This document shows, in pieces, positions 7,924-39,339 of a DNA stretch of 46,875 bases. The position numbers and the translations under genes were made by a program. Below the pieces are notes generated by a model. The model was given only the letters and a program-made list of their open reading frames with translations, had not been told where the DNA came from and did no database searches. Source of the DNA: a virus. Lineage: Duplodnaviria; Heunggongvirae; Uroviricota; Caudoviricetes. Location: the IMG/VR virus record IMGVR_UViG_3300033068_001916, one strand, 5' to 3'. Within the stretch, counting starts at the first letter, position 1, and every line of letters begins with the position of its first letter.

Positions 7924-7961
7924 AAACTTTATGTGGTATTTCACATATACCTTGTTATAAA
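7924..7961 (+). repeat. Half attC-like site H0 (right arm only)
   Basis: 37/38 nt identical to the right arm of H5 (9768-9805); no left arm upstream. Confidence 0.8.
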
Positions 7962-7972
7962 CTGTAAAAATT

Positions 7973-8176
7973 ATGAAATTAATAAAAAATATAGTAAAAA
8001 CTGATTTTATAACTTCTACAAATATACTTTTACTAAAAGGTCAGGAAGTTAGAACTATTTACACTCCTGATTCTGTTCACGGGGATAGATTTATAGATAT
8101 TTGGAGGTGCATTGATGGTTCGTATTGTGGTGGCTTAAATCCAAGATTAGAAGCTGATTATTTAGAAGAAATTTAA
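7973..8176 (+). CDS. Cassette ORF C1, hypothetical
   Basis: 67 aa, between GTTA 7954 and TAAC 8208. Confidence 0.65.
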   Translation: MKLIKNIVKTDFITSTNILLLKGQEVRTIYTPDSVHGDRFIDIWRCIDGSYCGGLNPRLEADYLEEI

Positions 8177-8207
8177 TATTAAACGCATTTTTGGATAAAC
8201 TTTTACA

Positions 8208-8336
8208 TAACGTTCGAGTGCTTTACGTCCGTTGTGGCTAAATAAGCACTAAACTTTCCTGTTATCACGAAATTAAACTGATGCAAAACAATAATTAAAT
8301 CAATCACAATGTAGCAATAGCGTGTAATTGCTGTTA
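8208..8336 (+). repeat. attC-like site H1 (129 bp, chimeric)
   Basis: Left 85 nt are 81/85 identical to H12, but the right arm differs and does not pair with the left arm. Confidence 0.75.
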
Positions 8337-8348
8337 TAAGTAGCTTTT

Positions 8349-8630
8349 ATGATTAGAAAATATAAAATAATAGCAGAAGTAGAAATAGATATTCAAAAGA
8401 TTTTTAAAGACAATATAAAAGATTATATAGAAGATGATAGTATTTCAGATGAAGCGTATGCAACTCAATCTATCTATGGCGTAATACGAGATGGATGTAC
8501 TGAACAAGTAAAGGATAGATGTGAGTGGATGTTTAAAGACTGTTACGACCAGATAAAGCACCATAAGGAAGTAGATGTTTTAATTGGTAAAGAAATACTA
8601 AAAAGTCTAAAGATAAACGTTATCGAGTAA
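8349..8630 (+). CDS. Cassette ORF C2, hypothetical
   Basis: Flanked by gttataagtaGct and agTtacttataac. Confidence 0.7.
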   Translation: MIRKYKIIAEVEIDIQKIFKDNIKDYIEDDSISDEAYATQSIYGVIRDGCTEQVKDRCEWMFKDCYDQIKHHKEVDVLIGKEILKSLKINVIE

Positions 8631-8639
8631 AGTTACTTA

Positions 8640-8767
8640 TAACGTTTCCACAGCTTTGCGAGGTTGCGACCTAAAAACTTAAAATTTACAAACACAAAAT
8701 ACACTTAAAATGAGCAAAAATATTTCAAATACAGACCAAACCAAGCAATCTTGCAAAATTGGTGTTA
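8640..8767 (+). repeat. attC-like site H2 (128 bp)
   Basis: tttgcgaggttgc pairs with gcaatcttgcaaa; contains ATG 8710. Confidence 0.8.
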
Positions 8768-8964
8768 GTGGCAGTCTTTCTAAACGTGAAAAGCTATCAC
8801 TTTTATCAGCCGATATTTTTGCAAGGAGAAAAGATTATAATTTTCATTTAACAAGTGAATTGTGTGCCGTTATTTGGCTTTTGGGTAAAGGAACTAAAAA
8901 CGAATATGATTGTAAGGAAATTATAAATTCTGTTTATTCACAGTTCTTTCAAGATTGCCACTAA
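8710..8964 (+). CDS. Cassette ORF C3 with hairpin-encoded leader
   Basis: Starts inside H2, reads through GTT as Val (KIG-VSGS), stops at the TAA of TAAC. Confidence 0.7.
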   Translation: MSKNISNTDQTKQSCKIGVSGSLSKREKLSLLSADIFARRKDYNFHLTSELCAVIWLLGKGTKNEYDCKEIINSVYSQFFQDCH

Positions 8965-9259
8965 CGGTTGCAAATAAAAATATGTAAAATTAACGGATAT
9001 GGAAGATAAACTAAAAAAACATTTGAATTTTTGTAAAAAGTATCCAGAAACAATAGTAGGATATGAACAAGGTATAAATGTTTCATATTATTTGATGGAA
9101 GGGAACACACCACAAGTGGATTATTTCAAGGTTGGTGATTTAGTTAAAATGTATAATGAAAATCCAAATGTTTTTTCTGAATATAAAAACTTAAAAGATG
9201 ATTGGAACGATTTAATAACCACTGAAGGTAGTTAATTTTATTGTTTTTATTTGTTGTTA
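8962..9259 (+). repeat. attC-like site H3 (298 bp) with an ORF in its loop
   Basis: Left arm caaataaaaatatgtaaaattaac pairs with right arm gttaattttattgtttttatttg. Confidence 0.75.
8999..9235 (+). CDS. ORF inside the loop of H3, hypothetical
   Basis: 78 aa; the stop TAA is supplied by the right arm. Confidence 0.65.
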   Translation: MEDKLKKHLNFCKKYPETIVGYEQGINVSYYLMEGNTPQVDYFKVGDLVKMYNENPNVFSEYKNLKDDWNDLITTEGS

Positions 9260-9284
9260 TGTTCTCGTTTTAATGGAACATAAC
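9256..9284 (+). other. Empty 29-bp inter-site segment C4
   Basis: gttatgttc-tcgttttaatg-gaacataac. Confidence 0.8.
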
Positions 9285-9407
9285 GTTGAAGCATAACTGT
9301 AGTTTAGGATAAGTAAGCCTAATCTATCGAAGTTAAAAACCAAGTTCACAAGTACAAAAACAATTATAAATCAAGCCTGATACCTAAATTACTGTTATGC
9401 AGTGTTA
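9281..9407 (+). repeat. attC-like site H4 (127 bp)
   Basis: gcataactgtagtttagg pairs with cctaaattactgttatgc. Confidence 0.8.
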
Positions 9408-9434
9408 GGGTTAGGTTTTTTAAACATTTACATT

Positions 9435-9719
9435 ATGAAAAGCGAGGAATATAGAATTGTATTAAACAATGTGTTTGAAACAAAAGAAATTGGAAAAGAA
9501 TATTTTGACAGAATTTTATTGGATTTTGCAATGGCATACCATAAAGAGCAATTAGGTATACTTAATGAAAACACTTTTAATAAAGAAAAGTTTGGCGAAT
9601 TAGCTATTATTTTTTTAAATGATTTGCAAAATAAAGAGATTAATTGTAAACATAATTTAGATATAAACGGAGAATGTTTAAATAATTTCTACCAATGGCT
9701 GTGTAAAAATTACAGCTAA
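9435..9719 (+). CDS. Cassette ORF C5, hypothetical
   Basis: ATG 9435; stops at the TAA of TAAC; segment ends only partly complementary. Confidence 0.65.
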   Translation: MKSEEYRIVLNNVFETKEIGKEYFDRILLDFAMAYHKEQLGILNENTFNKEKFGELAIIFLNDLQNKEINCKHNLDINGECLNNFYQWLCKNYS

Positions 9720-9801
9720 CGACTGGGTATATGTGAAGTACCCAACGACAGACTTAATAATTAGTAGAAACTTTATGGGGTATTTCACATATACCTTGTT
9801 A
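9717..9801 (+). repeat. attC-like site H5 (85 bp)
   Basis: ggtatatgtgaagtaccc pairs with gggtatttcacatatacc. Confidence 0.85.
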
Positions 9802-9816
9802 TAAAACGTTTATTTT

Positions 9817-10104
9817 ATGGTAGAATTTAAAAATCCTTTGGTTAGGGTAAGATGTTTGGAATGTAGAGAAGAACATTTTATTGAAATGAAACATATTGGA
9901 ACTGATAAAGAACAAAGAAGTATTGGTTTTGAATATGAACACATATATAGAGGTGAATTAAAATGTTCTCATTGTGGGGAAGATATGAGATTATTAACAA
10001 CGATATTTGAATTTCCAAAAGTATTTTTAAATTATCACGAAACGAATAATGAATCTTGTTTAGTGATGGATGATATTACAGATGATTCGTTAAATGTTTT
10101 ATAA
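9817..10104 (+). CDS. Cassette ORF C6, zinc-ribbon protein
   Basis: CLEC...CSHC; flanks gttataaaacGttta and taaaTgttttataac. Confidence 0.7.
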   Translation: MVEFKNPLVRVRCLECREEHFIEMKHIGTDKEQRSIGFEYEHIYRGELKCSHCGEDMRLLTTIFEFPKVFLNYHETNNESCLVMDDITDDSLNVL

Positions 10105-10361
10105 CGTTTTGCAAATAGGCTTAGTAAAATTAAACTTAATGAAATATAATTATGAAAGGCAAATTACGAGAAATTCAAGCATACAGTAGTAATTCAAGTG
10201 ATGAATTGGATTATAAAAATAAATACTGGTTTCATCAATGGATTGGAAAAACAACTGCTTTAATTGAAGATGAGCATGGGAAATTGATAAAAGCTAAACA
10301 CACAGAATTTCGTTTTAAGACGGATGCTGATGTTTAATTTTATTGAGCCTATTTGCTGTTA
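10102..10361 (+). repeat. attC-like site H6 (260 bp) with an ORF in its loop
   Basis: gcaaataggcttagtaaaattaaac pairs with gtttaattttattgagcctatttgc (two G:T). Confidence 0.8.
10152..10337 (+). CDS. ORF inside the loop of H6, hypothetical
   Basis: 61 aa; the stop is supplied by the right arm. Confidence 0.6.
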   Translation: MKGKLREIQAYSSNSSDELDYKNKYWFHQWIGKTTALIEDEHGKLIKAKHTEFRFKTDADV

Positions 10362-10386
10362 TGGCATCGTTTTAATGTACCATAAC
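10358..10386 (+). other. Empty 29-bp inter-site segment C7
   Basis: gttatggca-tcgttttaatg-taccataac. Confidence 0.8.
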
Positions 10387-10497
10387 GGTTTGCAGATAAA
10401 AGCAGTTTTAAACTAAAATTAAATAATATGGACGAAAGTAAAATTATGGAAGATAACTCAAATAGAAGTGATGAAAAATTGCTTTTATCTGCTGTTA
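10383..10497 (+). repeat. attC-like site H7 (115 bp)
   Basis: gcagataaaagcagtttt pairs with aaaattgcttttatctgc; contains ATG 10428. Confidence 0.85.
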
Positions 10498-10682
10498 TGC
10501 GTAGTGCTTCTGAAATAGAAGAACGACTACGATGTGCGTTGGCTGGATTTGAACACTCAAAAGAATGTGGTGATATTGAAACAGCAAAAGAATATCAGAA
10601 AGACGCTGGTGTTCTATTTTGGGTGTTGGGTCGTAGTGGTAGTTATGAATATAAGGATGGTAAAATTACGTTGTGTGATTAG
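10428..10682 (+). CDS. Cassette ORF C8 with hairpin-encoded leader
   Basis: Reads through GTT as Val (LSA-VMRS). Confidence 0.7.
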   Translation: MDESKIMEDNSNRSDEKLLLSAVMRSASEIEERLRCALAGFEHSKECGDIETAKEYQKDAGVLFWVLGRSGSYEYKDGKITLCD

Positions 10683-10691
10683 CATTACGCA

Positions 10692-10820
10692 TAACGTTTT
10701 GCAGCTTCATTTCAGTTGCGTACCTAAGCACAAAGAAAACAAATAATCACTTAATAAAATTTAAAAAAATGAACAATTCAGATACAAACCAAGCGAAGCA
10801 ATTGAATGAAACTGCTGTTA
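10692..10820 (+). repeat. attC-like site H8 (129 bp)
   Basis: gcagcttcatttcagttgc pairs with gcaattgaatgaaactgc; contains ATG 10769. Confidence 0.85.
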
Positions 10821-11071
10821 ACAGTAGTATTTTTTATAACGCTTTTATAGGTAAAAAAGATTCAAACGGAATTGAATTAAAAAACGGAGATAATATAATT
10901 ATTGAGGTTTGTAAGCCTGATGGTGCTAATAGAAATGGAGTTTACCACAAAGGACAAATAATATATGAAAATTGTTCTTTCTCAATTAAAATGAAAAGAA
11001 GTGAAGAAACATTTGATACAAATCCTTTATCAAATTATGCTTCATATTGTAAAATAAATTTAAACAATTAA
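10769..11071 (+). CDS. Cassette C9 ORF a with hairpin-encoded leader
   Basis: Reads through GTT as Val (ETA-VNSS). Confidence 0.7.
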   Translation: MNNSDTNQAKQLNETAVNSSIFYNAFIGKKDSNGIELKNGDNIIIEVCKPDGANRNGVYHKGQIIYENCSFSIKMKRSEETFDTNPLSNYASYCKINLNN

Positions 11072-11075
11072 TAAA

Positions 11076-11261
11076 ATGGACTTAAGAAAACAATTCAAAG
11101 TTACAGACGATGTAGATAATAAAAGATTCGTCTTTGATTCAGTAGACAATAATTCTTGTTCTTATACGGTTGCGTATTACGAATGTGATTCTGACGAGTC
11201 TAATGCTTGGATTTGTGTTTGGAAAGCGAAAAAAGGAGAAATTGAACGAGCTTCTGTTTAA
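11076..11261 (+). CDS. Cassette C9 ORF b, hypothetical
   Basis: Second ORF within one segment (gttaacagtaGtatt ... aataTtactgttaac). Confidence 0.6.
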   Translation: MDLRKQFKVTDDVDNKRFVFDSVDNNSCSYTVAYYECDSDESNAWICVWKAKKGEIERASV

Positions 11262-11270
11262 TATTACTGT

Positions 11271-11318
11271 TAACGTCTGATGATAAACAATCGTTTTAAT
11301 GTTGTTTATCATTTGTTA
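11271..11318 (+). repeat. attC-like site H9 (48 bp, minimal)
   Basis: atgataaacaa-tcgttttaatg-ttgtttatcat. Confidence 0.8.
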
Positions 11319-11385
11319 TGTGTAGTTATCATTCTGGAAACATCTTATAAAAATACAGATATAATAAACAAAAATAAATAAATAT

Positions 11386-11907
11386 ATGAAACTAATAAAC
11401 GAAACTTTCTTAATTGATACCTTTGATAAAGTATTAAAATCAGGTGATTTACAAAAATTGGTAAATGTTAAAAAATCAGAATCTAATGAATTAGAAGAAC
11501 ATTTGATTTCTATTTCAATTACTTCTGATCAACATAAATTGATTAGATCCCTGAATATAGATGAAAAAACGGAAGAGTATCTATTATCTGAGCTCAAAGA
11601 TTATTTTTTCAAAAAAATACTAGATTTTGTTTATTCCAACTCGACAATATTAGATAAGAACGAGTTGTATCAGAATATAGATAATCAAATAGTGATAGGT
11701 AGTTCTGGTGCAATTATGGATATTCCTGAAAATGTATCTACGATTTTAGATTATAATAAAAGTTTCAGTGACAAAACATTAGTAGTCACAGATAGTGTTG
11801 ATTTAATTTTAGATTACAATTCGATAAAAATACAAACAATTGGTATGGGAGGATTTGCTCCTAAGATGATTTTGAAATTTAGTTTTTGTTTAGCTGACAC
11901 AGAGTGA
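11386..11907 (+). CDS. Cassette ORF C10, hypothetical
   Basis: 173 aa; flanks pair at 16/18 plus two G:T. Confidence 0.7.
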   Translation: MKLINETFLIDTFDKVLKSGDLQKLVNVKKSESNELEEHLISISITSDQHKLIRSLNIDEKTEEYLLSELKDYFFKKILDFVYSNSTILDKNELYQNIDNQIVIGSSGAIMDIPENVSTILDYNKSFSDKTLVVTDSVDLILDYNSIKIQTIGMGGFAPKMILKFSFCLADTE

Positions 11908-11917
11908 TAATTACACA

Positions 11918-12046
11918 TAACGATACTCAGATATATTTAGGTTTTCATTTTTAATATATACTAAAAATAATTTAACAATATGAAAAATAATAAACATGTA
12001 GAAAGTTTCGGAAAATTCAATGAAAACTTGAATATATCTGATGTTA
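11918..12046 (+). repeat. attC-like site H10 (129 bp)
   Basis: tcagatatatttaggttttcatt pairs with aatgaaaacttgaatatatctga; loop contains ATATATACTA and ATG 11980. Confidence 0.85.
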
Positions 12047-12228
12047 GTGAGAGTAAAAAATCAAATCTAAAAATAAATAAATTTCTTGAGGAATTAACAA
12101 TAATATCTCAAAAGTATAATATTTATTTAGATACAACTGATGATATGTTTATGACTGATGATAGTGGTGATATTGGTAGTATTAAATATGACGACAATCT
12201 AAATAAATATATTTATCAGAAATATTGA
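11980..12228 (+). CDS. Cassette ORF C11 with capsid-targeting-like leader encoded by H10
   Basis: MKNNKHVESFGKFNENLNISD-VSES. Confidence 0.7.
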   Translation: MKNNKHVESFGKFNENLNISDVSESKKSNLKINKFLEELTIISQKYNIYLDTTDDMFMTDDSGDIGSIKYDDNLNKYIYQKY

Positions 12229-12242
12229 TTTTTAATTATCAC

Positions 12243-12360
12243 TAACGTTCGATGGCTTGTAGCAGAACGTATAATTAAAAACAAACATTACAGACACAAA
12301 AGAATTATTAACCAACGATGGCAAAGTAGCCTAAAGTAGTTTTGCTACAAACCATTGTTA
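12243..12360 (+). repeat. attC-like site H11 (118 bp)
   Basis: atggcttgtagcagaac pairs with gttttgctacaaaccat. Confidence 0.85.
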
Positions 12361-12374
12361 TAAACAGTTATTTT

Positions 12375-12680
12375 ATGATTATAGTAAACTATTACCGAGA
12401 AGAAGATTGCAACCCTGAAACAGATGGTTATCATTTGCATTTAGCTGGTGTAATAAACGATACTTTAGATTTGCAATATGATATACAATTAATTACAGAT
12501 TGTATTGATAACGATATTAATTTTGAACCTAAAAATGGTATTTTATACGAATTACAATTGACAAGAGCAACTATTCAAGCAGACCCAGTTGATGAGCCAG
12601 CTTTTGCAATTAGAGAAATTATTGAATTAAAAAGATGTAAACATACTGGCGAATTTTCTCCTGAGTTAGTTCGGCTATAA
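12375..12680 (+). CDS. Cassette ORF C12, hypothetical
   Basis: ATG 12375 (track ORF starts at TTG 12342). Confidence 0.65.
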   Translation: MIIVNYYREEDCNPETDGYHLHLAGVINDTLDLQYDIQLITDCIDNDINFEPKNGILYELQLTRATIQADPVDEPAFAIREIIELKRCKHTGEFSPELVRL

Positions 12681-12687
12681 TTGTTTA

Positions 12688-12816
12688 TAACGTTCGAGTG
12701 CTTTACGTCCGTTGTGGTTAAATAAGCACTAACCTTTCCTGTTATCACGAAACAAAACTGATGCAAAACAAATTTAATATTAAACCTAAACCCACAATGG
12801 CGTAAAACACTTGTTA
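12688..12816 (+). repeat. attC-like site H12 (129 bp)
   Basis: agtgctttacgtccgttgtgg pairs with ccacaatggcgtaaaacact. Confidence 0.85.
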
Positions 12817-12841
12817 TGCCTAGTGCTTAAAATCAGAAATT

Positions 12842-13096
12842 ATGCAAACAAAAAAAGGATGGCATAAATCAGGACTTGATTTAACAGAATATTTAGATGA
12901 ACCTTGTGAAATTAACGAGGAATTATTTAATTACATACTAGAATGTACAGCTCCACAATATTTAGATTACGGATTAGGACAAACTGGAGAAGCTGAAAAA
13001 CACGAAGATGGTGTTGGATATTATATGACAGTTTCTTTCGTAAATAACAAGCACTTTTATTTAGGAATTTTACCAGAGTTCGTTCAGTCGCATTAG
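12842..13096 (+). CDS. Cassette ORF C13, hypothetical
   Basis: Flanks gttatgcctaGtgc and gcaTtaggcataac. Confidence 0.7.
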   Translation: MQTKKGWHKSGLDLTEYLDEPCEINEELFNYILECTAPQYLDYGLGQTGEAEKHEDGVGYYMTVSFVNNKHFYLGILPEFVQSH

Positions 13097-13099
13097 GCA

Positions 13100-13228
13100 T
13101 AACGGACGGCGTGTATGAGAAGTGGCGTGCCCACAAACACTAATATTAACTAAAAAACACTAACAAACCCAATAAATACAGTATTTAACAAGTGTGCCCA
13201 AAGTAGCCATTTTTTATACACGATGTTA
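13100..13228 (+). repeat. attC-like site H13 (129 bp)
   Basis: cgtgtatgagaagtggc pairs with gccattttttatacacg. Confidence 0.85.
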
Positions 13229-13258
13229 GTAGCTGTGTTTATTAAAGAATTTTAAAAT

Positions 13259-13483
13259 ATGGGAGATTTATTAGAATTAATGCAAGAATTTGAAAAAAGA
13301 AACAACACTTCAATATCCTTAGATTTATGTAGTGATGGGTCAGGAACTTTAAAAGAGTTTTGGGATGGTGATGAAATAAAATCGTTTGAAAATTCGTCTG
13401 AATTACGCTCGTTTTTAGCGAACGGAAAATTGAAAATGAAAGATGGTCGTTCTGTTAAACCTATTAAGATAGTGGCTCAATAA
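13259..13483 (+). CDS. Cassette ORF C14, hypothetical
   Basis: Flanks gttagtagctGtgtt and aacaTagctactaac. Confidence 0.7.
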   Translation: MGDLLELMQEFEKRNNTSISLDLCSDGSGTLKEFWDGDEIKSFENSSELRSFLANGKLKMKDGRSVKPIKIVAQ

Positions 13484-13492
13484 CATAGCTAC

Positions 13493-13618
13493 TAACGTTT
13501 TGCTACTACAAGCAGTAGCGTGCTGAAAAGCCTAAATTATCGGAGTTTGCCCGAACAAAGCAAGTGCAAAAAAATAATAACCAAAGCCAAATGAAGCTAT
13601 TGATTGTAGTAGCTGTTA
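13493..13618 (+). repeat. attC-like site H14 (126 bp)
   Basis: gctactacaagcagtagc pairs with gctattgattgtagtagc. Confidence 0.85.
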
Positions 13619-13645
13619 TACAACGGTTTTTAAACATCATTAATT

Positions 13646-13915
13646 ATGAAAACTAATAAACAATATAGATTTAAAGACAATCCAAAAGAAAAAGAATTTC
13701 ACGATAAATTCAAAGAAATGTTTGAAAGTAACGGAGTGACAGATAAAACTCTTTCATCAATAGTTTTTGGATGGAAAGATGATAGACAAAATGTTCCTGC
13801 AAAATATCTAACAGAAAAAGAAAAAGATATTTGCTTAAATATAATACAATGGTTAGGTTCTCCTGTTGGAAGCGGATTTCTTCGTGACTGCGGATTTTCT
13901 GAAACTGTTGTATAA
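13646..13915 (+). CDS. Cassette ORF C15 (recombinase-proximal), hypothetical
   Basis: Flanks gttatacaacGgttt and aaacTgttgtataac; stops at the TAA of TAAC. Confidence 0.7.
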   Translation: MKTNKQYRFKDNPKEKEFHDKFKEMFESNGVTDKTLSSIVFGWKDDRQNVPAKYLTEKEKDICLNIIQWLGSPVGSGFLRDCGFSETVV

Positions 13916-13968
13916 CTATATTATATATGTAATAAAATGTAACCCGTTAATTTTCAACAAGTTATATA
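13913..13968 (+). other. Candidate attI-like insertion site
   Basis: TAAC not followed by the usual hairpin; contains aaaatgtaac-cc-gttaatttt and a GTTA 8 nt before the recombinase ATG. Confidence 0.45.
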
Positions 13969-14772
13969 ATGAAAAATCAAAAAATTATAAAGATCTGTAA
14001 AGAAAAGTTTATATATTTAAACTATTCACCTAGAACAAGAGATAATTATATATCTCACATAAAACATTTTTTAGAAAGCTTAGAGGATAAACAGATCGTA
14101 CATTGTAATTCTTCTGATTTTCAATCATATTTGGATAATTACGACTTTACATCAGTCTCTCAACAAAACCAAATTATTAACTCTATTAGATTCTTATACA
14201 AAGAAGTATTGAATAAAAAGTATGATAAAGTTTCCTTTAGGAGGCCTAGATCCGAAAAGAAATTACCTAAAGTAATAGATGGTAATTTTATTAAAAAACA
14301 ATTAGGTAGTATTAAAAATCTAAAACATAAAGCGATACTCACCTTAACATATTCAGTCGGATTAAGAGTCTCCGAAATAGTAAATCTAAAAATTATAGAT
14401 ATTGATTCTAAAAGAATGTTAATTCATATAAAAAATGCTAAAGGTCGAAAAGATAGAATTGTACCTTTATCTCAAATTGTTTTAGAACTATTAAGAGAAT
14501 ATTTCAAAGAATATAAACCAAAAGAATTCTTATTCAATGGTCAAAACTCCCTACAATACTCAGTAGGGAGCTGTCAAAAGATTTACAAAAAGTATATCGA
14601 TAATAAATCATCTATACACACTTTAAGGCATTCCTCATTCACAAATTTATTAGAATCGGGGACAGATTTAAGAATAATACAGAAGATTGCGGGACATTCG
14701 AGTTCAAAAACAACAGAAATTTATACTCACGTTTCTAACAACCTTTTATCCAGGGTTAAATTACCAATATAA
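13969..14772 (+). CDS. Tyrosine recombinase/integrase, compact Xer-like, putative cassette integrase
   Basis: Intact catalytic set: GLRVSE, AKGRKDR, HTLRH, AGH, EIY; N-terminal SAM-like region YSPRTRDNY; no IntI insertion. Confidence 0.95.
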   Translation: MKNQKIIKICKEKFIYLNYSPRTRDNYISHIKHFLESLEDKQIVHCNSSDFQSYLDNYDFTSVSQQNQIINSIRFLYKEVLNKKYDKVSFRRPRSEKKLPKVIDGNFIKKQLGSIKNLKHKAILTLTYSVGLRVSEIVNLKIIDIDSKRMLIHIKNAKGRKDRIVPLSQIVLELLREYFKEYKPKEFLFNGQNSLQYSVGSCQKIYKKYIDNKSSIHTLRHSSFTNLLESGTDLRIIQKIAGHSSSKTTEIYTHVSNNLLSRVKLPI

Positions 14773-16214
14773 TGACTACGAAGAGAAAGAAAAAACCAAT
14801 AGTTGATATAGATGTTCTAAATTCAGATCAAAGGGAAGCTTTTGAAAATCTGAGAGACTTTATATGCGACACCAGTGACGAAAATGTTTATGTTCTTAAA
14901 GGATGGGCAGGTACAGGTAAAACATTTTGTATAAGTGTTCTTGTTAGGTACATTTTAGAAGTCGTTCATCCCAAAAGTGCTTGGTATAAGATAGCTGTAA
15001 CCGGACCAACAAACAAGTCGGTTAGAGTTATAAAGAAAACTAGTAATCTTAGGAATCCTAGAGTTACGTTCCAAACTATACACAAACTTCTTGGACTAAC
15101 AGAGAAGATAACAAATGATGGGCAACAGGTTTTTGTGAATCAGGGGAAAAATTTCAAACCTCAGATCAACTCGATTAAGCTTTTAATTATAGATGAGGTT
15201 TCAATGCTTAATGATGAACTTTTCCACGAGGTTCTTAAATATAGAGACAAGCTAAAGATTATCTGTATGGGAGATCCCGCACAAATCCCGCCGGTTGGAA
15301 AACCTGACTGTATTCCCTTCAGAGACGAGCTAGCAGATGTATATGGTATAAAAACTATCCAGCTGAAAAGAATAATGAGACAGAAGGAGGGTAATGCAAT
15401 AATAGAATCATCCGTTAAAATTAGAGAGGATCTTTGGTCTGAAAGAAATCCGGTTCCCACAGTTACGTCTTTGAATAGCCTAGGTGAGGGTGTAGAATTT
15501 TTAAATCTCAACGATAGTGAAACCAGAAAAGGATTTGGTGATATACTTTCCAAATATTTTAAATCTGAAGAATTCAACAAGGATCCTGAATATTGCAAAA
15601 TAATCGCATGGAGGAATAAAACTGTTACCAGCATGAATAACATCGTCAGAAGGATTCTTTTTGGCGAGGAAGAGAGTAAAACAAAAATTTTGGTAGGTGA
15701 GAAATTGATTGCCAATACACCTATAATCATACAGGGAAATCTTATATTATTTAATACCAATGATGAATTTTCAGTTGAATCGACAAATATAAGAGAAAAA
15801 AATATGGCTCTTAAAACATTCTCCCCCGTTGTCGAGGTTAAACTAAAATATTATGATGCAGTTGTTAGTTATCTGAATGACGAAGACGAGATTGAAAAAA
15901 CATCAATAGAGATTCTCCACGAGGACAGTCAGATCGAATTTGCTAAGATTGCAAATCTTCTTAAATTGAAGGCGATAGAAAAAAAAGGTAGAGACAGGAG
16001 CTGGCTTGATTATTATGATTTTATGAGAAACTTTGCTGATGTGAGCTTTGCATATGCTATAACTGCACACAAAAGTCAGGGAAGTACATATAACACGACA
16101 TTTGTAATTGAGGATGATATCGACGAAAACTATAATGTCGTTGAAAGAAATAGGATTAAGTATACTGCTTATACAAGATCAAGCAAGAAAGTTTATGTTT
16201 TAAAAAGATTTTAA
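14772..16214 (+). CDS. dda: SF1B DNA helicase, Dda/RecD2-like
   Basis: GWAGTGKT, IIDEVSM, GDPAQIPPV, YAITAHKSQGST, YTAYTR. Confidence 0.85.
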   Translation: MTTKRKKKPIVDIDVLNSDQREAFENLRDFICDTSDENVYVLKGWAGTGKTFCISVLVRYILEVVHPKSAWYKIAVTGPTNKSVRVIKKTSNLRNPRVTFQTIHKLLGLTEKITNDGQQVFVNQGKNFKPQINSIKLLIIDEVSMLNDELFHEVLKYRDKLKIICMGDPAQIPPVGKPDCIPFRDELADVYGIKTIQLKRIMRQKEGNAIIESSVKIREDLWSERNPVPTVTSLNSLGEGVEFLNLNDSETRKGFGDILSKYFKSEEFNKDPEYCKIIAWRNKTVTSMNNIVRRILFGEEESKTKILVGEKLIANTPIIIQGNLILFNTNDEFSVESTNIREKNMALKTFSPVVEVKLKYYDAVVSYLNDEDEIEKTSIEILHEDSQIEFAKIANLLKLKAIEKKGRDRSWLDYYDFMRNFADVSFAYAITAHKSQGSTYNTTFVIEDDIDENYNVVERNRIKYTAYTRSSKKVYVLKRF

Positions 16215-16232
16215 TTTATTATTTTTTTATTC

Positions 16233-16253
16233 CGAATATTTTGTATATGTTTG
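16233..16253 (+). promoter_or_regulatory. Bacteroidota-type promoter (CG-N11-TAnnTTTG)
   Basis: TATGTTTG 16246-16253. Confidence 0.7.
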
Positions 16254-16275
16254 CAAAATAAAAATAAAAACATTT

Positions 16276-16770
16276 ATGAAAAAATTTATTGAAAATTTGA
16301 TCTTCGGATCTAGATGGTTACTTATACCATTCTACATTGGTCTTATTGTAGTGATGTTCATTTACACCTTTGTCTATACGAAGGAGATATTTCATCTTCT
16401 AACAGAAATTGGACACCTAACAAAGGAATCAGTTATGTTGATGATTCTGGAAATAGTCGACATTGTAATGATAGCCAACCTTGTTAAGATGATTATAACA
16501 GGAAGTTATAATTCTTTTGTCGATAAGGGACACGGGGTTCAGGGAGAAAATGTTTCATCTGGAATGCTTAAGGTTAAAATGAGTACTTCATTAATTGGGG
16601 TTTCTTCTATACATCTTTTGCAAACATTTATTAATGCTTCAGCTACTAGTTGGGACGAATTGAATAAACAGATGCTTATACATGGATCATTCCTTGTCGG
16701 ATCTCTGATACTTTCAATAATTGATTATTTACACGAAAAAGCAGAGTCAAATGCAGGCGGACACCACTAA
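16276..16770 (+). CDS. yqhA: YqhA/UPF0114 family membrane protein
   Basis: SRWLLIPFYIGL, VDIVMIANLVKMIITGSYNSFV, LKVKMSTSLIGVSSIHLL. Confidence 0.75.
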   Translation: MKKFIENLIFGSRWLLIPFYIGLIVVMFIYTFVYTKEIFHLLTEIGHLTKESVMLMILEIVDIVMIANLVKMIITGSYNSFVDKGHGVQGENVSSGMLKVKMSTSLIGVSSIHLLQTFINASATSWDELNKQMLIHGSFLVGSLILSIIDYLHEKAESNAGGHH

Positions 16771-16945
16771 AAAATCGAGGGAACATCTGGTGATCATCAT
16801 AGATGATCTGGATAAAATACCACCAAAAAAATATTCTTGTCCATTTGAGAACAAGACAAAGGAGGAGGCAATAAAGGCTTCTAAGGCTCAATACGAGCTA
16901 AACAACAAGAATATCCATTACAAATCTTATTATTTTGAACATTAA
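16751..16945 (+). CDS. Small hypothetical protein
   Basis: Fills the gap between yqhA and the lipoprotein; start uncertain. Confidence 0.45.
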   Translation: MQADTTKKSREHLVIIIDDLDKIPPKKYSCPFENKTKEEAIKASKAQYELNNKNIHYKSYYFEH

Positions 16946-16957
16946 TTTATTTTAACT

Positions 16958-17413
16958 ATGAAGAATTTTTTCTATTTAATTCTGGCAATATTAATTGTCT
17001 CGTGTGTTGGTAACACCAAAAAAGGAAACGGTGAAACTTATGCAACCAAGGATAGACCTGGATATTGCTATCATGGAGATGATGGACTCTGGTATATCTA
17101 CTACTTGAACAGCACAACAGGAAGCTATACTTATGCAGGAACATCCCCAAGTTTTACGAATTATGACTCATCGGAAACTGTTGCATGGACTCCAACATCG
17201 GAAAATGTTTCCAATTTTGAATCTGTACCCGAAACTGTAGCTGATGCAATGTCGGAATCCACAGGAGAAAATGCAGGTGGAAGCGAAGCATCGGAAGCAT
17301 CTGATGGCGGAATGTCTGAATCATCAGGAAGTTCTGAAGGTGGGAGCGATTCCAGTGGAGGAGATTCAGGAGGAGGAGACGGTGGTGGAGATGGCGGCGG
17401 AGGCGGCGAATAA
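16958..17413 (+). CDS. Putative lipoprotein with Gly/Ser/Asp-rich tail
   Basis: Signal peptide with lipobox-like IVSC; C-terminal GGSDSSGGDSGGGDGGGDGGGGGE. Confidence 0.7.
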   Translation: MKNFFYLILAILIVSCVGNTKKGNGETYATKDRPGYCYHGDDGLWYIYYLNSTTGSYTYAGTSPSFTNYDSSETVAWTPTSENVSNFESVPETVADAMSESTGENAGGSEASEASDGGMSESSGSSEGGSDSSGGDSGGGDGGGDGGGGGE

Positions 17414-17429
17414 CCAAAAAATATCTATA

Positions 17430-17460
17430 AAAAAACCCAACTCTAAAGGTTGGGTTTTTT
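17430..17460. terminator. Intrinsic terminator
   Basis: aaaaaacccaac-tctaaag-gttgggtttttt. Confidence 0.85.
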
Positions 17461-17495
17461 ATTTTGATAAATTTTGATAAATTATTTTTATATTT

Positions 17496-17516
17496 CGAAA
17501 GAATTTATTACTTTTG
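17496..17516 (+). promoter_or_regulatory. Bacteroidota-type promoter (CG-N11-TAnnTTTG)
   Basis: TACTTTTG 17509-17516. Confidence 0.65.
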
Positions 17517-17534
17517 TGATATAAAAAATAAAAG

Positions 17535-18002
17535 ATGAATAAGGATCTGGCAGAAGCTGAGGAGAGAGCTCTAAATTACATAAGATCAACTAAGGAATAT
17601 TCAGAAATGAATTTCCAGGATAATAATAGTAAAATATGGGTGGCACACAATTCTTTGATTGAAGCTGCCAAAATATATGTTATTGACAATTATAAATTGA
17701 TTGACGATTATTCTGGACTCGATTTAATATTAAGAAGCGGAGCAACCGGTGATAGATTCTATTTTGGACCAAAAAGATCGAGGGAGGTTTCAAGATCTGG
17801 CATGTTGACAAACATATTAAAGGATCTAGATTCTAGAACTATAACGATAGAGACATTTGATGATGCAATCTATGATTGGTCGGACGGAGATTTTTCTGTT
17901 GTCTTTAATGGGGTTTCCTATAATTGGATAGACAGCGATTCAGTTATAAACATAGCATCATACATAGAAAAAAAATTAGAAGAAAATGAAATACAATATT
18001 GA
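17535..18002 (+). CDS. Hypothetical protein
   Basis: 155 aa ORF. Confidence 0.7.
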   Translation: MNKDLAEAEERALNYIRSTKEYSEMNFQDNNSKIWVAHNSLIEAAKIYVIDNYKLIDDYSGLDLILRSGATGDRFYFGPKRSREVSRSGMLTNILKDLDSRTITIETFDDAIYDWSDGDFSVVFNGVSYNWIDSDSVINIASYIEKKLEENEIQY

Positions 18003-19104
18003 AACAATAAATGAATATGTAGCAAAGGGATTGATCGATAAATGCGAGCATAAGGAGCTTCCAATAGCTATTTATAAATATTCACGTAATTGTCAATTCG
18101 AATGGAATTGGGACGATGTAACGAAAAATATGAGAGGAACTGTTCTTGATGATGATGGTAATCTGATTGCCCGTACATTTCCTAAGTTCTTCAATATTGA
18201 TGAATCTAATGTACCTAATCTTAATTTTGAGGTTTTTGAAAAGCTTGACGGATCTCTTGGCATATTATTTAATTATGAAGGGGAATGGCATCTGGCAACA
18301 CAGGGATCATTCTATTCAGATGTTGCTATCTACGCCAAAGAAATATTGAAAAGAAATGAAACGTATAAGGAAGTTTTTTCTGAGAAATTTACTTTTCTTT
18401 TTGAGATCATCTACCCAAAGAATAGAATAGTTTGTTCCTATGGAGATGATGAGAAATTAGTTATGCTGGCTGCTTTTAATACAAATACAGGCAGAGAAGT
18501 TCCTTATCATGAATTAATTGATGTTGCAAATAGAACTGGGTTTGAATGCGCTAAAAGATATGATGGAATAAAAGATCTCAAGAAGATAAAATCCCTAATA
18601 GGAGATAATCAGGAAGGCTTTGTTATAAGATTTTCCGACGGAACAAGGATTAAAGCCAAGGGTGAGGAGTATGTTAGACTCCATGGGGTTCTAACATCAT
18701 TCTCCAATCTTGATATCTGGAGATGTTTAAAGGAGGGAACTGATTATAGATCTCTGATGGTTGATATACCCGATGAATATGACGCCTGGGTTACCAATGT
18801 TGAGGAGGATCTTCAATCCAATTTCAATTTTATAGATGCAACAATAAATGCTGAATATAAATTGATAGCAAAGAAGATCAAGAGTCAAATTCCAACAGAG
18901 GAGGAAAGATTAGACAGAAACTCTCCTGTACTTAAGGCATACAACAAGGAATTTTTTGAACTTGTAGAAGGCCATAGATTAGCTGGATATCTATTAGATC
19001 GTCATAGAAATAAAGACTATTCAGGATCGATATGGAATCAAATAAGACCTGAATATGAAAAACCATTTTGGACAGATTACTCAATGAAAAGAAACGAATT
19101 ATGA
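17986..19104 (+). CDS. RNA ligase, T4 Rnl1-like
   Basis: MRGTVLD...ARTFPKFFN, motif I EKLDGSL, FLFEII, QEGFVI, RIKAKGEEY. Confidence 0.85.
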   Translation: MKYNIETINEYVAKGLIDKCEHKELPIAIYKYSRNCQFEWNWDDVTKNMRGTVLDDDGNLIARTFPKFFNIDESNVPNLNFEVFEKLDGSLGILFNYEGEWHLATQGSFYSDVAIYAKEILKRNETYKEVFSEKFTFLFEIIYPKNRIVCSYGDDEKLVMLAAFNTNTGREVPYHELIDVANRTGFECAKRYDGIKDLKKIKSLIGDNQEGFVIRFSDGTRIKAKGEEYVRLHGVLTSFSNLDIWRCLKEGTDYRSLMVDIPDEYDAWVTNVEEDLQSNFNFIDATINAEYKLIAKKIKSQIPTEEERLDRNSPVLKAYNKEFFELVEGHRLAGYLLDRHRNKDYSGSIWNQIRPEYEKPFWTDYSMKRNEL

Positions 19105-19409
19105 TGTTCCCAATTATAACAAACCAAAGAAGAGAAACAAAGGTTGAGAAACCAAAGATCGAAACAATAGGAAACTATACAAAATTATCAGCCGATGAAT
19201 TTTTAAAACTATTGGCTATAAGAACTAAGGATTCCAGTCTATTTGAATCCATTACTTATATAACCAATTGGTATGGATTTGATAATCTCGAACATGATGA
19301 GAAAATCGATTTCGTCAGAAGAATAGAAACACCAGAATATTACAATCTGATCCCGAGGGTTAAAAGAATGATTAAAAGACTAAGAAATGGAAGAGGAAAT
19401 AGGTCATAA
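19101..19409 (+). CDS. Hypothetical protein
   Basis: ATG overlaps the ligase stop. Confidence 0.6.
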   Translation: MMFPIITNQRRETKVEKPKIETIGNYTKLSADEFLKLLAIRTKDSSLFESITYITNWYGFDNLEHDEKIDFVRRIETPEYYNLIPRVKRMIKRLRNGRGNRS

Positions 19410-19623
19410 GGTAAGAGCTAAAGTTGGTGAATTCCTATGCAAGAATGGATTTGAAGATAATGGAAGAGGATTCTTTAATGAGTATTGCCTAGTTTTAATA
19501 GAGGATGATCATTACTGTGTGGAAATGGATCAGGGACACATGTTTAGTAACGATCTAAATATTTATTGGCTGATAGTAGTATTGACATATAATGGTTTAA
19601 TGGATAAAAATTATAAACAATGA
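19387..19623 (+). CDS. Hypothetical protein
   Basis: 78 aa ORF in the operon. Confidence 0.6.
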   Translation: MEEEIGHKVRAKVGEFLCKNGFEDNGRGFFNEYCLVLIEDDHYCVEMDQGHMFSNDLNIYWLIVVLTYNGLMDKNYKQ

Positions 19624-20018
19624 TGACACCATCACAAATAGAAAAAGAAAAATTAGAGTTTGCTATAGAGCATCTGAAACAACATATTGTACATCCAATG
19701 AAACCTGGATACAGGAGGCATGATGTGATTAATAAAATCAAAGAATTGGAAGAACAACTTGGATCGATATTGATAACGGAGGAGAAAGAAATTATTATAT
19801 TGATTAATACTGATACATCTTGCGAGATGGCGATGGTATCAATAGATGGTAAGTGTGTAATGTCAGGAAACTTTTGGGATTTCCACCCAGGGTGCCATGG
19901 AATAAATGAATATGGAGAATTTAGAGGCCATGATGATTTAGCAATAAAGATATTGTCAAAGCTAACAAAGGAAGGAAAAAAGGCTAAAATAATTAAGAAA
20001 AGTTATAAATTCAGTTAA
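19620..20018 (+). CDS. Hypothetical protein
   Basis: 132 aa ORF in the operon. Confidence 0.65.
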   Translation: MMTPSQIEKEKLEFAIEHLKQHIVHPMKPGYRRHDVINKIKELEEQLGSILITEEKEIIILINTDTSCEMAMVSIDGKCVMSGNFWDFHPGCHGINEYGEFRGHDDLAIKILSKLTKEGKKAKIIKKSYKFS

Positions 20019-28886: not shown

Positions 28887-29620
28887 GATTGTATATTTTT
28901 TACCCATTCTGTGAATCTTATGATTGATTCATTTAAGGTTTCTCTAAAATTAAAATCCTTTAGGAACTTAGGAAAATCTGCTTTATATCCTCGCTGGGTT
29001 TCGTCGTTTGCATCCTTTGTATACTGCCAATTGAACGATAACTGTGGAGGGGTTTTGAAACCAAAGAACCCTAATACCTCCCTTTCGGTTTTAATCGCTG
29101 TCTCTCCATTCCAATTGTGACCGATTGCTACTACACCACATTCTTTATCCTTTAGTAAATTAGATTCACCTAATGTCGTATGTCTATTTTCCAACCACGT
29201 TAATCTCTCAATCAACTGAGAATAGATAGCATTCATCTTTCCCCATCTAATAGATCCAAAGAATATAATTATATCAGCATCATAAATGGCATTTGCAACC
29301 TTATGCATCTCATCCGTTTTGTTGTTTATTGATGCCCAGCATCTTATAAATTTCTCAGGATTGTTGCTTTTTAGCATTGCTTCTTTAACCCCGCAATTAT
29401 TTCCTTCCCTTGCAGAAACGTTGCCTTCACAAGGAAATATTTTAAGCTTGCTAACATCTATTATTTCTGCATTTTCCAATTTCCTTTTAAGCTCAGCAGC
29501 AATCATGGATGACTTTGGTAATTCCTTCTCTCCTTCCCATCTATTTGAGGTGGTTAGAAAAAGGATTTTCTTTTTCCTGTCTTTCTTAATGTAGTTATAA
29601 AGTCTTTTCAATTTATCCAT
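28883..29620 (-). CDS. Flavodoxin-fold NAD(P)H-dependent FMN reductase/WrbA-like protein
   Basis: ILFLTTSNR, IFPCEG...RCWAS...DEM...ADIIIFFGSIRWG. Confidence 0.75.
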   Translation of the reverse strand: MDKLKRLYNYIKKDRKKKILFLTTSNRWEGEKELPKSSMIAAELKRKLENAEIIDVSKLKIFPCEGNVSAREGNNCGVKEAMLKSNNPEKFIRCWASINNKTDEMHKVANAIYDADIIIFFGSIRWGKMNAIYSQLIERLTWLENRHTTLGESNLLKDKECGVVAIGHNWNGETAIKTEREVLGFFGFKTPPQLSFNWQYTKDANDETQRGYKADFPKFLKDFNFRETLNESIIRFTEWVKNIQS

Positions 29621-29624
29621 GAAT

Positions 29625-29633
29625 TATATATCC
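29625..29633 (-). promoter_or_regulatory. GGATATATA motif heading the minus-strand operon
   Basis: Ends 4 nt upstream of ATG 29620. Confidence 0.55.
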
Positions 29634-29648
29634 ATAATTTTTTTTATC

Positions 29649-29669
29649 CGCAAGATTGTTTTATATTTG
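29649..29669 (+). promoter_or_regulatory. Bacteroidota-type promoter (CG-N11-TAnnTTTG)
   Basis: TATATTTG 29662-29669. Confidence 0.7.
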
Positions 29670-29688
29670 CAATGTAAAAAATTATATT

Positions 29689-30003
29689 ATGACTGTAAGT
29701 GAATTTAGAGAAGATATGGCAGATCTTTCGAGAGAACTCCACGAGAGAGGTGTTAAAGAATTCTATCTTATCTCGGGTACCTCATTAATTAGTAAATATT
29801 CGATACCAGATGAACTGAGAGGTGAATTTGAAGAATTCCATTCAGGTGGGGATTATGGAGAATGGACAGCTAATACTGCTGAATTCATACACCAGTTTGC
29901 TAGAGACATGGAAGCAAATATGATTTTGATGGATTTCGAGATAGATGAATTTTTAGAAAACTTAACAGCTGTCAGAAATTCTGTAGCTGAAAAAATTGAT
30001 TAA
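29689..30003 (+). CDS. Hypothetical protein
   Basis: ATG 29689 lies downstream of the promoter. Confidence 0.65.
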   Translation: MTVSEFREDMADLSRELHERGVKEFYLISGTSLISKYSIPDELRGEFEEFHSGGDYGEWTANTAEFIHQFARDMEANMILMDFEIDEFLENLTAVRNSVAEKID

Positions 30004-30005
30004 TT

Positions 30006-39338: not shown

Positions 39339-39339
39339 C

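Follow-up and report, generated by a model that had tools for sequence, protein, structure and literature searches.

The 46,875-nt stretch of tailed-phage DNA analysed here (the window) carries, between 7954 and 13916, a series of GTT...AAC segments bearing open reading frames (ORFs), the cassettes of an integron-like array in a giant phage. The question that this locus raises is why each segment has a G at position +11 (numbering from the first letter of GTT) and a T at position -11 (numbering backwards from the last letter of AAC). The preliminary description had reported this invariance for all 13 ORF-bearing segments; our recount gave 13/13, and the ten left ends quoted there proved to be letter-exact. 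The features of the array are as follows.

about 7924-7953: L'-type arm, just upstream of segment A1
7954-8211 (+): segment A1, ORF 7973-8176; mismatched ends, G 7964 and T 8201 kept
8212-8332 (+): hairpin B with poor L box; T 8318 at -15 without clear partner
8333-8643 (+): segment A2, ORF 8349-8630; R-box wobble G 8343 : T 8633
8644-8763 (+): hairpin B; L-box wobble G 8663 : T 8749; contains start codon of ORF 8710-8964
8764-8965 (+): segment A3; R-box wobble G 8774 : T 8955
8966-9255 (+): hairpin B, loop ORF 8999-9235; L-box wobble G 8984 : T 9241, bulged T
9256-9284 (+): empty 29-nt R hairpin; two arms, bulged C, G·T, T:A, TTTA loop
9285-9393 (+): atypical hairpin B; G at -15, weak L box
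9394-9720 (+): segment A4, ORF 9402-9719; mismatches at 5-10, G 9404 and T 9710 kept
9721-9797 (+): hairpin B; L-box wobble G 9738 : T 9783
9798-10105 (+): segment A5, ORF 9817-10104; G 9808 : T 10095
10106-10357 (+): hairpin B, loop ORF 10152-10337; L-box wobble G 10124 : T 10343
10358-10386 (+): empty 29-nt R hairpin
10387-10493 (+): hairpin B; L-box wobble G 10405 : T 10479; start of ORF 10428-10682 inside
10494-10695 (+): segment A6; G 10504 : T 10685
10696-10816 (+): hairpin B; L-box wobble G 10715 : T 10802, 1-nt bulge; start of ORF 10769-11071 inside
10817-11274 (+): segment A7, two ORFs; G 10827 : T 11264
11275-11314 (+): minimal 40-nt hairpin B, L arms closing TTTA loop; G 11293 : T 11300, bulged C
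11315-11921 (+): segment A8, ORF 11386-11907; G 11325 : T 11911
11922-12042 (+): hairpin B; L-box wobble G 11940 : T 12028
12043-12246 (+): segment A9; G 12053 : T 12236, mismatches at 9 and 13
12247-12356 (+): hairpin B; L-box wobble G 12265 : T 12342
12357-12691 (+): segment A10; G 12367 : T 12681
12692-12812 (+): hairpin B; L-box wobble G 12711 : T 12798, 1-nt bulge
12813-13103 (+): segment A11; G 12823 : T 13093
13104-13224 (+): hairpin B; L-box wobble G 13122 : T 13210
13225-13496 (+): segment A12; G 13235 : T 13486
13497-13614 (+): hairpin B; L-box wobble G 13515 : T 13600
13615-13916 (+): segment A13, last cassette; G 13625 : T 13906; AAC abuts attI-like sequence
13917-13968 (+): attI-like junction region, starting TATnnTATATA
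13969-14772 (+): Xer-like tyrosine recombinase, 267 aa, without about 48 residues of IntI4 (I2 region)

The right end of the first segment lies at 8211, a small correction to the preliminary description. The left part of hairpin 8212-8332 is homologous to 12692-12812, and its right arm is different.

The G·T pair in the window and its relatives

As had been described, ten of the 13 ORF-bearing segments show perfect Watson-Crick pairing at positions 1-10, a G:T at 11 and pairing resumed at 12-15, the renewed pairing spanning 12-14 rather than 12-15 in segment 12813-13103. Segment 12043-12246 has mismatches at 9 and 13 with the G:T at 11 present, and the two segments with mismatched ends (7954-8211 and 9394-9720) have, in keeping with the earlier account, nonetheless retained both the G and the T. 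Outside the segments, a G occurs at +11 after GTTA in 17.3% of cases in the window and a T at -11 before TAAC in 25.3%; based on these background frequencies, the chance of 13 joint matches is about 2e-18. The wobble had been tied to the ORF-bearing segments, all of which indeed have it, but the intervening hairpins carry a G:T as well: in the L box, the G is paired with a T at -15 in 12/14 window hairpins, two window hairpins having poor L boxes, and the ORF-less 29-nt hairpins (9256-9284 and 10358-10386) harbor the same G:T one place further out, beside a bulged C.

In phage relatives, G:T was found at position 11 in 277/303 distinct cassettes from 80 related contigs, with a cassette detector that is blind to this position. 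Among the GTTA-type ends of the phage set, 261/272 have G:T, none G:C and two A:T, together with 107 distinct hexamers at positions 5-10; these positions had been said to vary freely, which is true only in part, as the two ends covary and base preferences are seen. The L box of the related set has G·T at arm position 11 in 93/94 well-defined hairpins. A second arm class retains the G·T and has, in addition, a bulged T or C; a base is bulged beside the wobble in 14/93 L arms and about 64 R arms, most arms being bulge-free. Bacterial loci (n = 36, with adjoining recombinases 38-51% identical) yielded a further 88 cassettes with G:T at 11, and the G·T is kept in GC-rich bacterial arrays though position 12 and the loop motif differ. 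Deviating array members have A:T (L058, 92-329) or T:T (L082, 6112-6445). In minimal hairpins (4 distinct R and 25 distinct L), the arms run exactly to the G·T and T:A around a TTTA loop, and because these hairpins keep their arms exactly that far, we place the arm end there. Our literature search found no published description of a cassette system with a fixed G:T at position 11.

Folding, strand asymmetry and cassette borders

Pairing between hexamers was complete (6/6) in 179/420 motif-defined end pairs vs. 4.3 expected with shuffled partners; of the lone non-Watson-Crick hexamer pairs, 32 were of the G·T or T·G type as against three of the A·C or C·A type, and pairing with covariation extends past position 11. 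Among reconstituted sites, the + strand was more stable than the - strand in 163/164, with folding energies of -21.9 vs. -17.7 kcal/mol and 622 vs. 120 G·T pairs in the folds. The contention that the wobble makes sense in a folded single strand is thus upheld, as it lies inside a helix with covariation on both sides and is strand-specific. In the minimal hairpins, the wobble stands beside a 4-nt loop and is unpaired in the minimum-energy fold of free DNA, and the G and T may be read there as sequence rather than as a pair.

Borders at AAC|G are seen in cassettes shared by related loci and likewise in contigs from independent metagenomes; unit 10387-10695 is present again in L067, where AAC|G marks its two borders, and segment A5 (9798-10105) has a homologous cassette in a different context in L044. 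In run X1, the ORF-bearing loop of hairpin 8966-9255 is replaced by a 15-nt minimal loop, and the AAC of the 10358-10386 hairpin is joined straight to the attI-like sequence at 13917; in runs X1-X3, the attI-like region follows different upstream DNA, the switch falling at 13912/13913, and the junction is in use there with other cassettes. These comparisons localise the crossover to within or just after the universal TAAC, no finer. Arrays in related loci lie upstream of the recombinase gene, and TATnnTATATA after the last TAAC is conserved in 41 distinct junctions from 49 loci, with this TAAC|TATnnTATATA junction 32-52 nt ahead of the recombinase start codon. In phages, the hairpin precedes its ORF and ORFs face the attI side; bacterial relatives display the classical ORF polarity.

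The recombinase and the reading of the wobble

The recombinase adjoining the array contains Xer-like catalytic (PF00589, 3.6e-33) and SAM-like N-terminal (PF13495, 5.3e-12) domains, and its best solved relatives are XerA (4a8e), IntI4 and XerD. As an integrase of the IntI type, it scored only 151 bits with TIGR02249 (cut-off 265) and 103 bits with NF011946 (cut-off 435), and every score with the curated Xer models was under its cut-off. Residues 178-210 align with residues 180-260 of IntI4, about 48 residues in the I2 region being absent. The enzyme is Xer/XerA-like, without the integron-specific I2 region.

We take G +11 and T -11 to be the halves of a single G·T pair that forms upon folding of the + strand. 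The mobile unit comprises a hairpin B and the following ORF segment A, with (T)AAC at both bounds. In the folded unit, the ends of A become the R box and those of B the L box, each box being an 11-bp arm that proceeds outward from an inner TTA/TAA (R box) or NTA/TAN (L box) through six free but paired positions and the G·T to one further pair. The 3' strand of the folded site reads as 11 + 6 + 11 nt (L' from -16 to -6, centre from -5 to +1 and R' from +2 to +12), about 3 surplus bases on the 5' strand stay unpaired, and the G·T is base pair 10 of each arm in this dif-type layout. The T always resides on the strand reading 5'-AT-n6-TAA towards the centre, with the G on the partner strand, and the strand with the T in the R box would bear the crossover, with putative cleavage at AA|C. 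One monomer of the I2-less recombinase would bind each arm, the wobble may serve as a sequence-independent mark of register and identity, and only the + strand hairpin would be a substrate, as the - strand would have A·C at both places. Judging from the sequences, we favor as probable that the fixed G·T in the arms is the mark for arm recognition and strand choice by this Xer-like enzyme. The preliminary description had proposed a determinant for a recombinase or for strand selection, and this predicted role fits the presence of the wobble in both boxes at the same arm position, in line with the two-fold symmetry of the tyrosine-recombinase core; its additional proposal, that the wobble replaces the extrahelical bases of attC, is conjectural, and a subset of arms has a bulge right beside the wobble.

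Among other explanations, the arms may be bound as ordinary double strands in which the wobble never forms, with G-type arms (G at +11; R', L'') and A-type arms (an A at the corresponding outward place; R'', L') rendering the junctions asymmetric and setting the direction of recombination. Each junction does have one G-type and one A-type arm, the 11-6-11 of the 3' strand equals the duplex dif layout, and such a code would account for the missing G:C and A:T; we nevertheless deem both the code and its directional role unlikely, since a duplex gives no reason for complementary hexamers at the two ends of one cassette or for one strand being richer in additional G·T pairs, the AAC|G border junction would have a 9-bp centre as duplex, and a single recombinase gene would have to serve two half-site types. 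It is quite unlikely that the G·T merely stabilises the + strand hairpin without being read by the protein, even though the folding difference of 4.2 kcal/mol favors this strand and G:T mispairs in classical attC sites favor the recombined strand (1.24 vs. 0.39 mispairs, 2.12 kcal/mol difference; Nivina et al. 2016, PMC5027507), because stability requires neither a constant position nor a constant orientation, with the G in the GTTA-type arm and the T in the TAAC-type one, nor the same place in both boxes, and all three constraints hold in >95% of arms across phyla.

The notion of a scar of cassette genesis, also raised in the preliminary description, would have the G, the T and their neighbors as the loop-closing remnant of an ancestral minimal hairpin (...[C]GT-TTTA-AT...) with cargo inserted in its loop. 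R and L boxes alike include minimal hairpins whose centre has precisely this form, and the loaded hairpin 8966-9255 is found elsewhere with a minimal loop in place of its ORF; an unselected remnant should drift, however, whereas the G·T is 96% retained over 107 arm families and recombinase lineages about 43% identical, with no G:C and only two A:T among the 272 GTTA-type ends as Watson-Crick replacements, persists in the GC-rich bacterial arrays and is followed by covarying pairs outside position 11, making this explanation very unlikely. Most improbable is a G·U in an RNA helix around each ORF that would act in translation control, RNA stability or processing. In the phage arrays, 193/209 ORFs are read in the sense of the G:T strand and some hairpins contain start codons, but 70/78 ORFs in bacterial arrays are antisense to that strand and their mRNAs would have A·C, while cassette borders and the adjoining recombinase indicate DNA; an Rfam search gave no match. 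Because the bacterial cassette ORFs are antisense to the G:T strand, the G:T is a feature of DNA and not of mRNA, and the RNA option offered earlier falls.

Relation to integrons and Xer/dif systems

In the integron field, the I2 domain and extrahelical bases are viewed as enabling recombination of folded single-stranded DNA and correct strand choice, and strand selection in classical attC sites is attributed to extrahelical bases, the unpaired central spacer and the variable terminal structure. The phage sites resemble classical attC in their AAC...GTT core, in R and L boxes arising from a folded single strand as an imperfect R''/L''/L'/R' hairpin, in an unpaired asymmetric spacer, in cassette-specific complementary ends and in one strand folding better, partly via G:T pairs; the array likewise lies beside a tyrosine recombinase with a conserved attI-type junction. 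In contrast to the statistical skew of classical attC, both boxes of the phage sites have their G·T at a set position and in a set orientation, arm length is 11-12 bp instead of 7, and the extrahelical base is an optional bulge beside the wobble. The phage recombinase, unlike that of classical integrons, is devoid of I2, and phage ORFs lie on the folding strand facing the recombinase, whereas the classical order is ORF then attC, read away from attI.

With XerC/XerD-dif, the system shares a recombinase closest to Xer/XerA, the 11-6-11 layout and the inner TAA/TTA, and its T-bearing strand AT-n6-TAA resembles the cleaved strand of an E. coli dif arm that we take to be the XerD arm. It differs from dif in having a single recombinase gene, six free middle arm positions, a G·T wobble at arm base pair 10 (hence a site not fully Watson-Crick) and about 3 extra bases on the 5' strand, and its sites bound mobile gene cassettes in arrays instead of serving dimer resolution or phage attachment. 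In the CTX phage, folded single-stranded DNA undergoes exchange of one strand pair by Xer enzymes (PMC3442271), a likeness in that I2-less Xer enzymes are capable of acting on such a substrate.

The array belongs to a widespread cassette system without I2, in which both arms of each site are marked by one fixed wobble, offering a one-base, directly testable candidate determinant of strand choice and site recognition that bears on the origin of integrons from Xer systems. Whether the G·T at base pair 10 is the primary signal for folded-site recognition and strand choice, constituting a second independent solution to hairpin recombination and a plausible living intermediate between Xer/dif and IntI/attC that Bacteroidota phages have in common with bacteria of several phyla, is a proposal we put forward tentatively, at somewhat less than even chances. 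The near-absence of sequence constraint implies that these sites could become structure-specific recombination tools.

Current attC models take such arrays as classical or miss them, and GTTA-n6-G...T-n6-TAAC plus the L-box equivalent provides a rule to search for them. Clusters of attC sites in phages, including Polaribacter phage P12002L, have been reported by Qi et al. 2023 (PMC9892861), who treated the sites as classical attC, the Xer-like recombinase and the fixed wobble being unmentioned; P12002L_attC1 was the only site of six without a verified IntI1 junction (PMC9892861). The cloned P12002L_attC1 piece, which is without R-arm position 11, forms a minimal hairpin whose loop centre matches that of the minimal hairpins described above, and P12002L carries cassettes of the fixed-wobble kind, with G:T at 11.

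The alternating array and its wobble

Two kinds of unit alternate along the array, A units, in which the two ends form the R box, and hairpins (B units), in which they form the L box:

7954-13916, + strand: the whole array
A units, + strand: 15, starting with GTT and ending with AAC, 13 with ORFs and two as 29-nt hairpins
B units, + strand: 14, between A units, with their own ends paired
13969-14772, after the array: tyrosine recombinase gene (267 aa)

The preliminary description had claimed a fixed G:T wobble in all ORF-bearing segments; G at +11 (from the G of GTT) and T at -11 (back from the C of AAC) were indeed present in 13 of 13, and in 10 of these positions 1-10 were Watson-Crick paired, position 11 was G:T and pairing resumed at 12-15 (12-14 in 12813-13103). 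One boundary alone needed correcting, the first segment ending at 8211. Elsewhere in the window, G follows GTTA at +11 in 17.3% and T precedes TAAC at -11 in 25.3% of cases, so that 13 joint matches would be expected by chance with p ~2e-18. The segments with mismatched ends (7954-8211 and 9394-9720) resemble decayed or hybrid cassettes, as does the atypical hairpin 9285-9393. Hairpins 8212-8332 and 12692-12812 have ~95 nt in common on the left and unrelated right arms, which explains the poor L box of the former.

At 8966-9284 and 10106-10386, the ORF resides within the loop of the L-box hairpin and the R hairpin is empty (29 nt); in metagenome run X1, a 15-nt minimal loop replaces the ORF in the hairpin of the 8966-9284 unit, indicating that cargo can sit between either arm pair. 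Three ORFs (8710-8964, 10428-10682 and 10769-11071) start inside a hairpin and run across the GTT core; the hairpin-encoded leaders of ORFs 8710 and 10769 are similar by eye, and phrog_27194 (unknown function) matches the first 32 residues of ORF 8710-8964, i.e. the leader only. No Pfam family was found for the ten cassette ORFs searched, the window yielded no Rfam match at gathering thresholds and nothing from a tRNA scan, and 13900-20000 had no megablast match among cultured phages.

Position 11 and site geometry in related phage loci

With the recombinase as query, we recovered 80 loci (62-87% identity) on large uncultivated phage contigs; most of those with sequence upstream of the recombinase carry arrays of the same build there. 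A detector blind to position 11 (spans of up to 1300 nt from GTT to AAC, with ≥10 of the 11 pairs at 4-10 and 12-15 being Watson-Crick) returned 303 distinct segments from the 511 kb preceding the recombinases vs. 25 from the 715 kb that follow them; 277 of the 303 have G:T at position 11. Among GTTA-type ends, G:T was found in 261/272, G:C in none and A:T in two, with 107 different hexamers at positions 5-10; most apparent exceptions belong to a second arm class with one extra base (T or C) on the left arm just before the G, the G·T being kept and a bulge added. When pairs were defined without selection on hexamer pairing, as the motif TGTTA-n6-G and then the first downstream T-n6-TAAC, the hexamers were fully complementary in 179 of 420 vs. 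4.3 expected with partners shuffled; hence, the cassette ends truly covary.

A second frequent wobble, T·G, lies at arm position 9, two places inside the fixed G·T (motif TAG/TTG), and is wobble-compatible on the + strand only. In related loci, 23 cassettes have it at R-box position 9, and window arms with it include:

10122/10345
11938/12030
11291/11301

Junction profiles revealed conserved bases inside the B units, both before GTT (T at -15, A at -16, TA at -8/-7) and after AAC (TA at +10/+11, GT at +19/+20). These bases are the two L-box arms, NNTA-n6-[N]-G(T) on the 5' side and (A)T-n6-TANN on the 3' side, and by these profiles the L-box arm grammar is that of the A-unit ends. Among 94 distinct hairpins whose L arm is well defined, 93 had G·T at arm position 11, 14 of these with a bulged C or T; in the window the L-box G·T was found in 12 of 14 hairpins by a register-based count, used because minimum-energy folds of truncated hairpins overlooked some L-box wobbles. 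Both boxes also occur in minimal form, R as 29-nt hairpins (4 distinct) and L as 25 distinct hairpins, and as these retain the arms exactly through the G·T and the T:A around a TTTA loop, the outer arm end is position 12. The 3' strand comprises an L' arm (-16 to -6), six central bases (-5 to +1) and an R' arm (+2 to +12), the same 11-6-11 geometry as dif, the sequence of which was confirmed; the 5' strand has about three extra bases. In both arms the wobble is base pair 10, and in R and L box alike the T is on the strand that runs 5'-AT-n6-TAA towards the centre, so that the mark follows the two-fold symmetry of core sites used by tyrosine recombinases.

Strand bias in folding and readings of the wobble

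Reconstituting the site as right arm of A, B and left arm of A gave 164 distinct sites, which were folded with DNA parameters. The + strand fold was more stable than that of the - strand in 163 of 164 (-21.9 vs. -17.7 kcal/mol), and the sites had 622 G·T pairs on the + strand vs. 120 on the - strand. Single non-Watson-Crick pairs in the hexamer were G·T or T·G in 32 cases and A·C or C·A in 3.

The preliminary description had framed the wobble as a feature of folded single-stranded DNA or RNA. In phage arrays the ORFs lie on the G:T strand (the + strand, whose folding gives the fixed G·T) in 193/209 cassettes; since this is the sense strand, these arrays alone leave the RNA reading open. Species-representative genomes also contained recombinases (38-51% identical) with adjoining arrays, in hosts that include:

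Flavobacterium saccharophilum DSM 1811
Desulfitobacterium sp. Sab5
Arenibacter arenosicollis
several metagenome-assembled genomes

G:T at position 11 was present in 88 bacterial cassettes, and 70 of 78 ORFs in these arrays are encoded on the strand opposite the G:T strand, which removes RNA as a frame and argues that the mark follows the recombination site, not the message. A structure in mRNA, being contradicted by the bacterial arrays, is thus hardly credible. In one Desulfitobacterium hairpin G·T was also seen by eye at -15. The recombinase gene is reversed relative to the array, its 5' end adjoining the array in phages and its 3' end in bacteria (loci L129, L139, L116, L158, L160 and L161 compared with window 7954-13916).

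A code read in duplex half-sites would account for the absence of G:C and A:T but leaves the covariation of cassette ends and the wider G·T excess unexplained, and we consider it unlikely. Quite doubtful as well is a pure stability effect of G·T pairs, which would not require the pair to be fixed in place and orientation in each box. A scar of past events, also raised in the preliminary description, should have drifted and is very improbable.

Recombinase, mobile unit and proposed exchange

The recombinase has a catalytic and a SAM-like N-terminal domain. Its best-scoring models were archaeal XerA, IntI and XerC/D, all below cut-offs, and its nearest solved relatives are XerA, IntI4 and XerD; it aligned with IntI4 in two blocks, ~48 residues of IntI4 (180-260, the integron-specific I2 region) having no counterpart. 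The phage site would work like an integron site, yet by the IntI membership test the system falls outside that group. A Dda/PIF1-like helicase gene (14772-16214) begins at the recombinase stop codon; as a component of the system it was rejected, being at that place in only 2 of 78 related loci. The nearest cultured-phage recombinases are those of Cellulophaga phage Ingeline (39% identity) and Polaribacter phage Freya (35%), and the stretches examined in these phages held no comparable arrays, only chance GTT...AAC pairs and one 61-nt hairpin. The latter (Freya_10, L001, 3733-3793) has 10 pairs, G:T at 11 and six further pairs, and lies ~350 nt upstream of the phage integrase (35% identical to the window's); among Freya isolates, the sequence before the integrase gene differs by up to 4 kb.

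Cassettes common to different arrays (8 of 52 sharing pairs being informative) displayed homology from the preceding AAC|G through their own ...TAAC, with divergence immediately outside, which defines the mobile unit as hairpin B plus the following A:

L017 and L032 (related loci)
L017 and L031
L067 and window 10387-10695
L044 and window about 9721-10105

The AAC of the last cassette adjoins a TATnnTATATA motif that is conserved and lies 32-52 nt ahead of the recombinase start. In three runs from independent metagenomes (X1, X2 and X3), the DNA upstream of the recombinase and this attI-like junction differs from the window's, the break being at 13912/13913; X1 fuses the 29-nt hairpin 10358-10386 directly to 13917, and contigs of X4 depart from the window at 9287, with entry at 10692. 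This evidence comprises contig breaks and, at AAC, the X1 joint (uncovered stretches and joints with sides <30 nt were excluded). The crossover is resolved only as far as the universal TAAC. The 22 runs X1-X22, from 15 studies labelled freshwater, wastewater, groundwater, estuary and similar metagenomes, each contain only 9-17% of the stretch's sampled words, and in the four examined by contig (X1-X4) the matches are array parts in other contexts; the remaining runs are not counted as evidence.

We propose, as the most probable reading, that the wobble marks the folded recombination site: the + strand would fold and be bound by one recombinase monomer per 11-bp arm, on the model of integrons and of the folded CTX phage DNA that Xer enzymes recombine (PMC3442271). 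The R-box monomer would cut the T-bearing strand at TAA|C, and one strand pair would then pass between this site and either the attI-like site or a further folded site. With the six middle positions of each arm free, the wobble may anchor the protein at the arm's outer end, and it probably makes the two strands unequal, since the hairpin of the - strand carries A·C in both boxes. Binding, chemistry and effect of the wobble are surmised here from sequence and analogy.

The literature searched on attC describes classical features and no fixed wobble. Classical attC sites, with 1.24 vs. 0.39 G:T mispairs and a difference of 2.12 kcal/mol (PMC5027507), embody a weaker, unfixed version of the strand-inequality idea, whereas here the wobble is fixed. 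Qi et al. 2023 described attC clusters in phages and treated them as classical (PMC9892861); cassettes like those described here occur in one of their phages, Polaribacter phage P12002L. The P12002L_attC1 site that they cloned belongs to this family as a minimal hairpin; of six sites, it alone gave no verified junction with IntI1 (PMC9892861), a result that fits a different enzyme specificity, although the cloned piece lacks R-arm position 11. The P12002L (L163) cassettes with G:T at position 11 are:

30952-31120, - strand
39242-39518, - strand
40047-40154, - strand
40552-40764, - strand
14622-15197, + strand

The methyltransferase cassette of P12002L (29237-30011) has T:T at positions 10-11 instead of G:T. 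P12002L is a cultured virulent phage, and one of its G:T cassettes lies inside the structural gene module.
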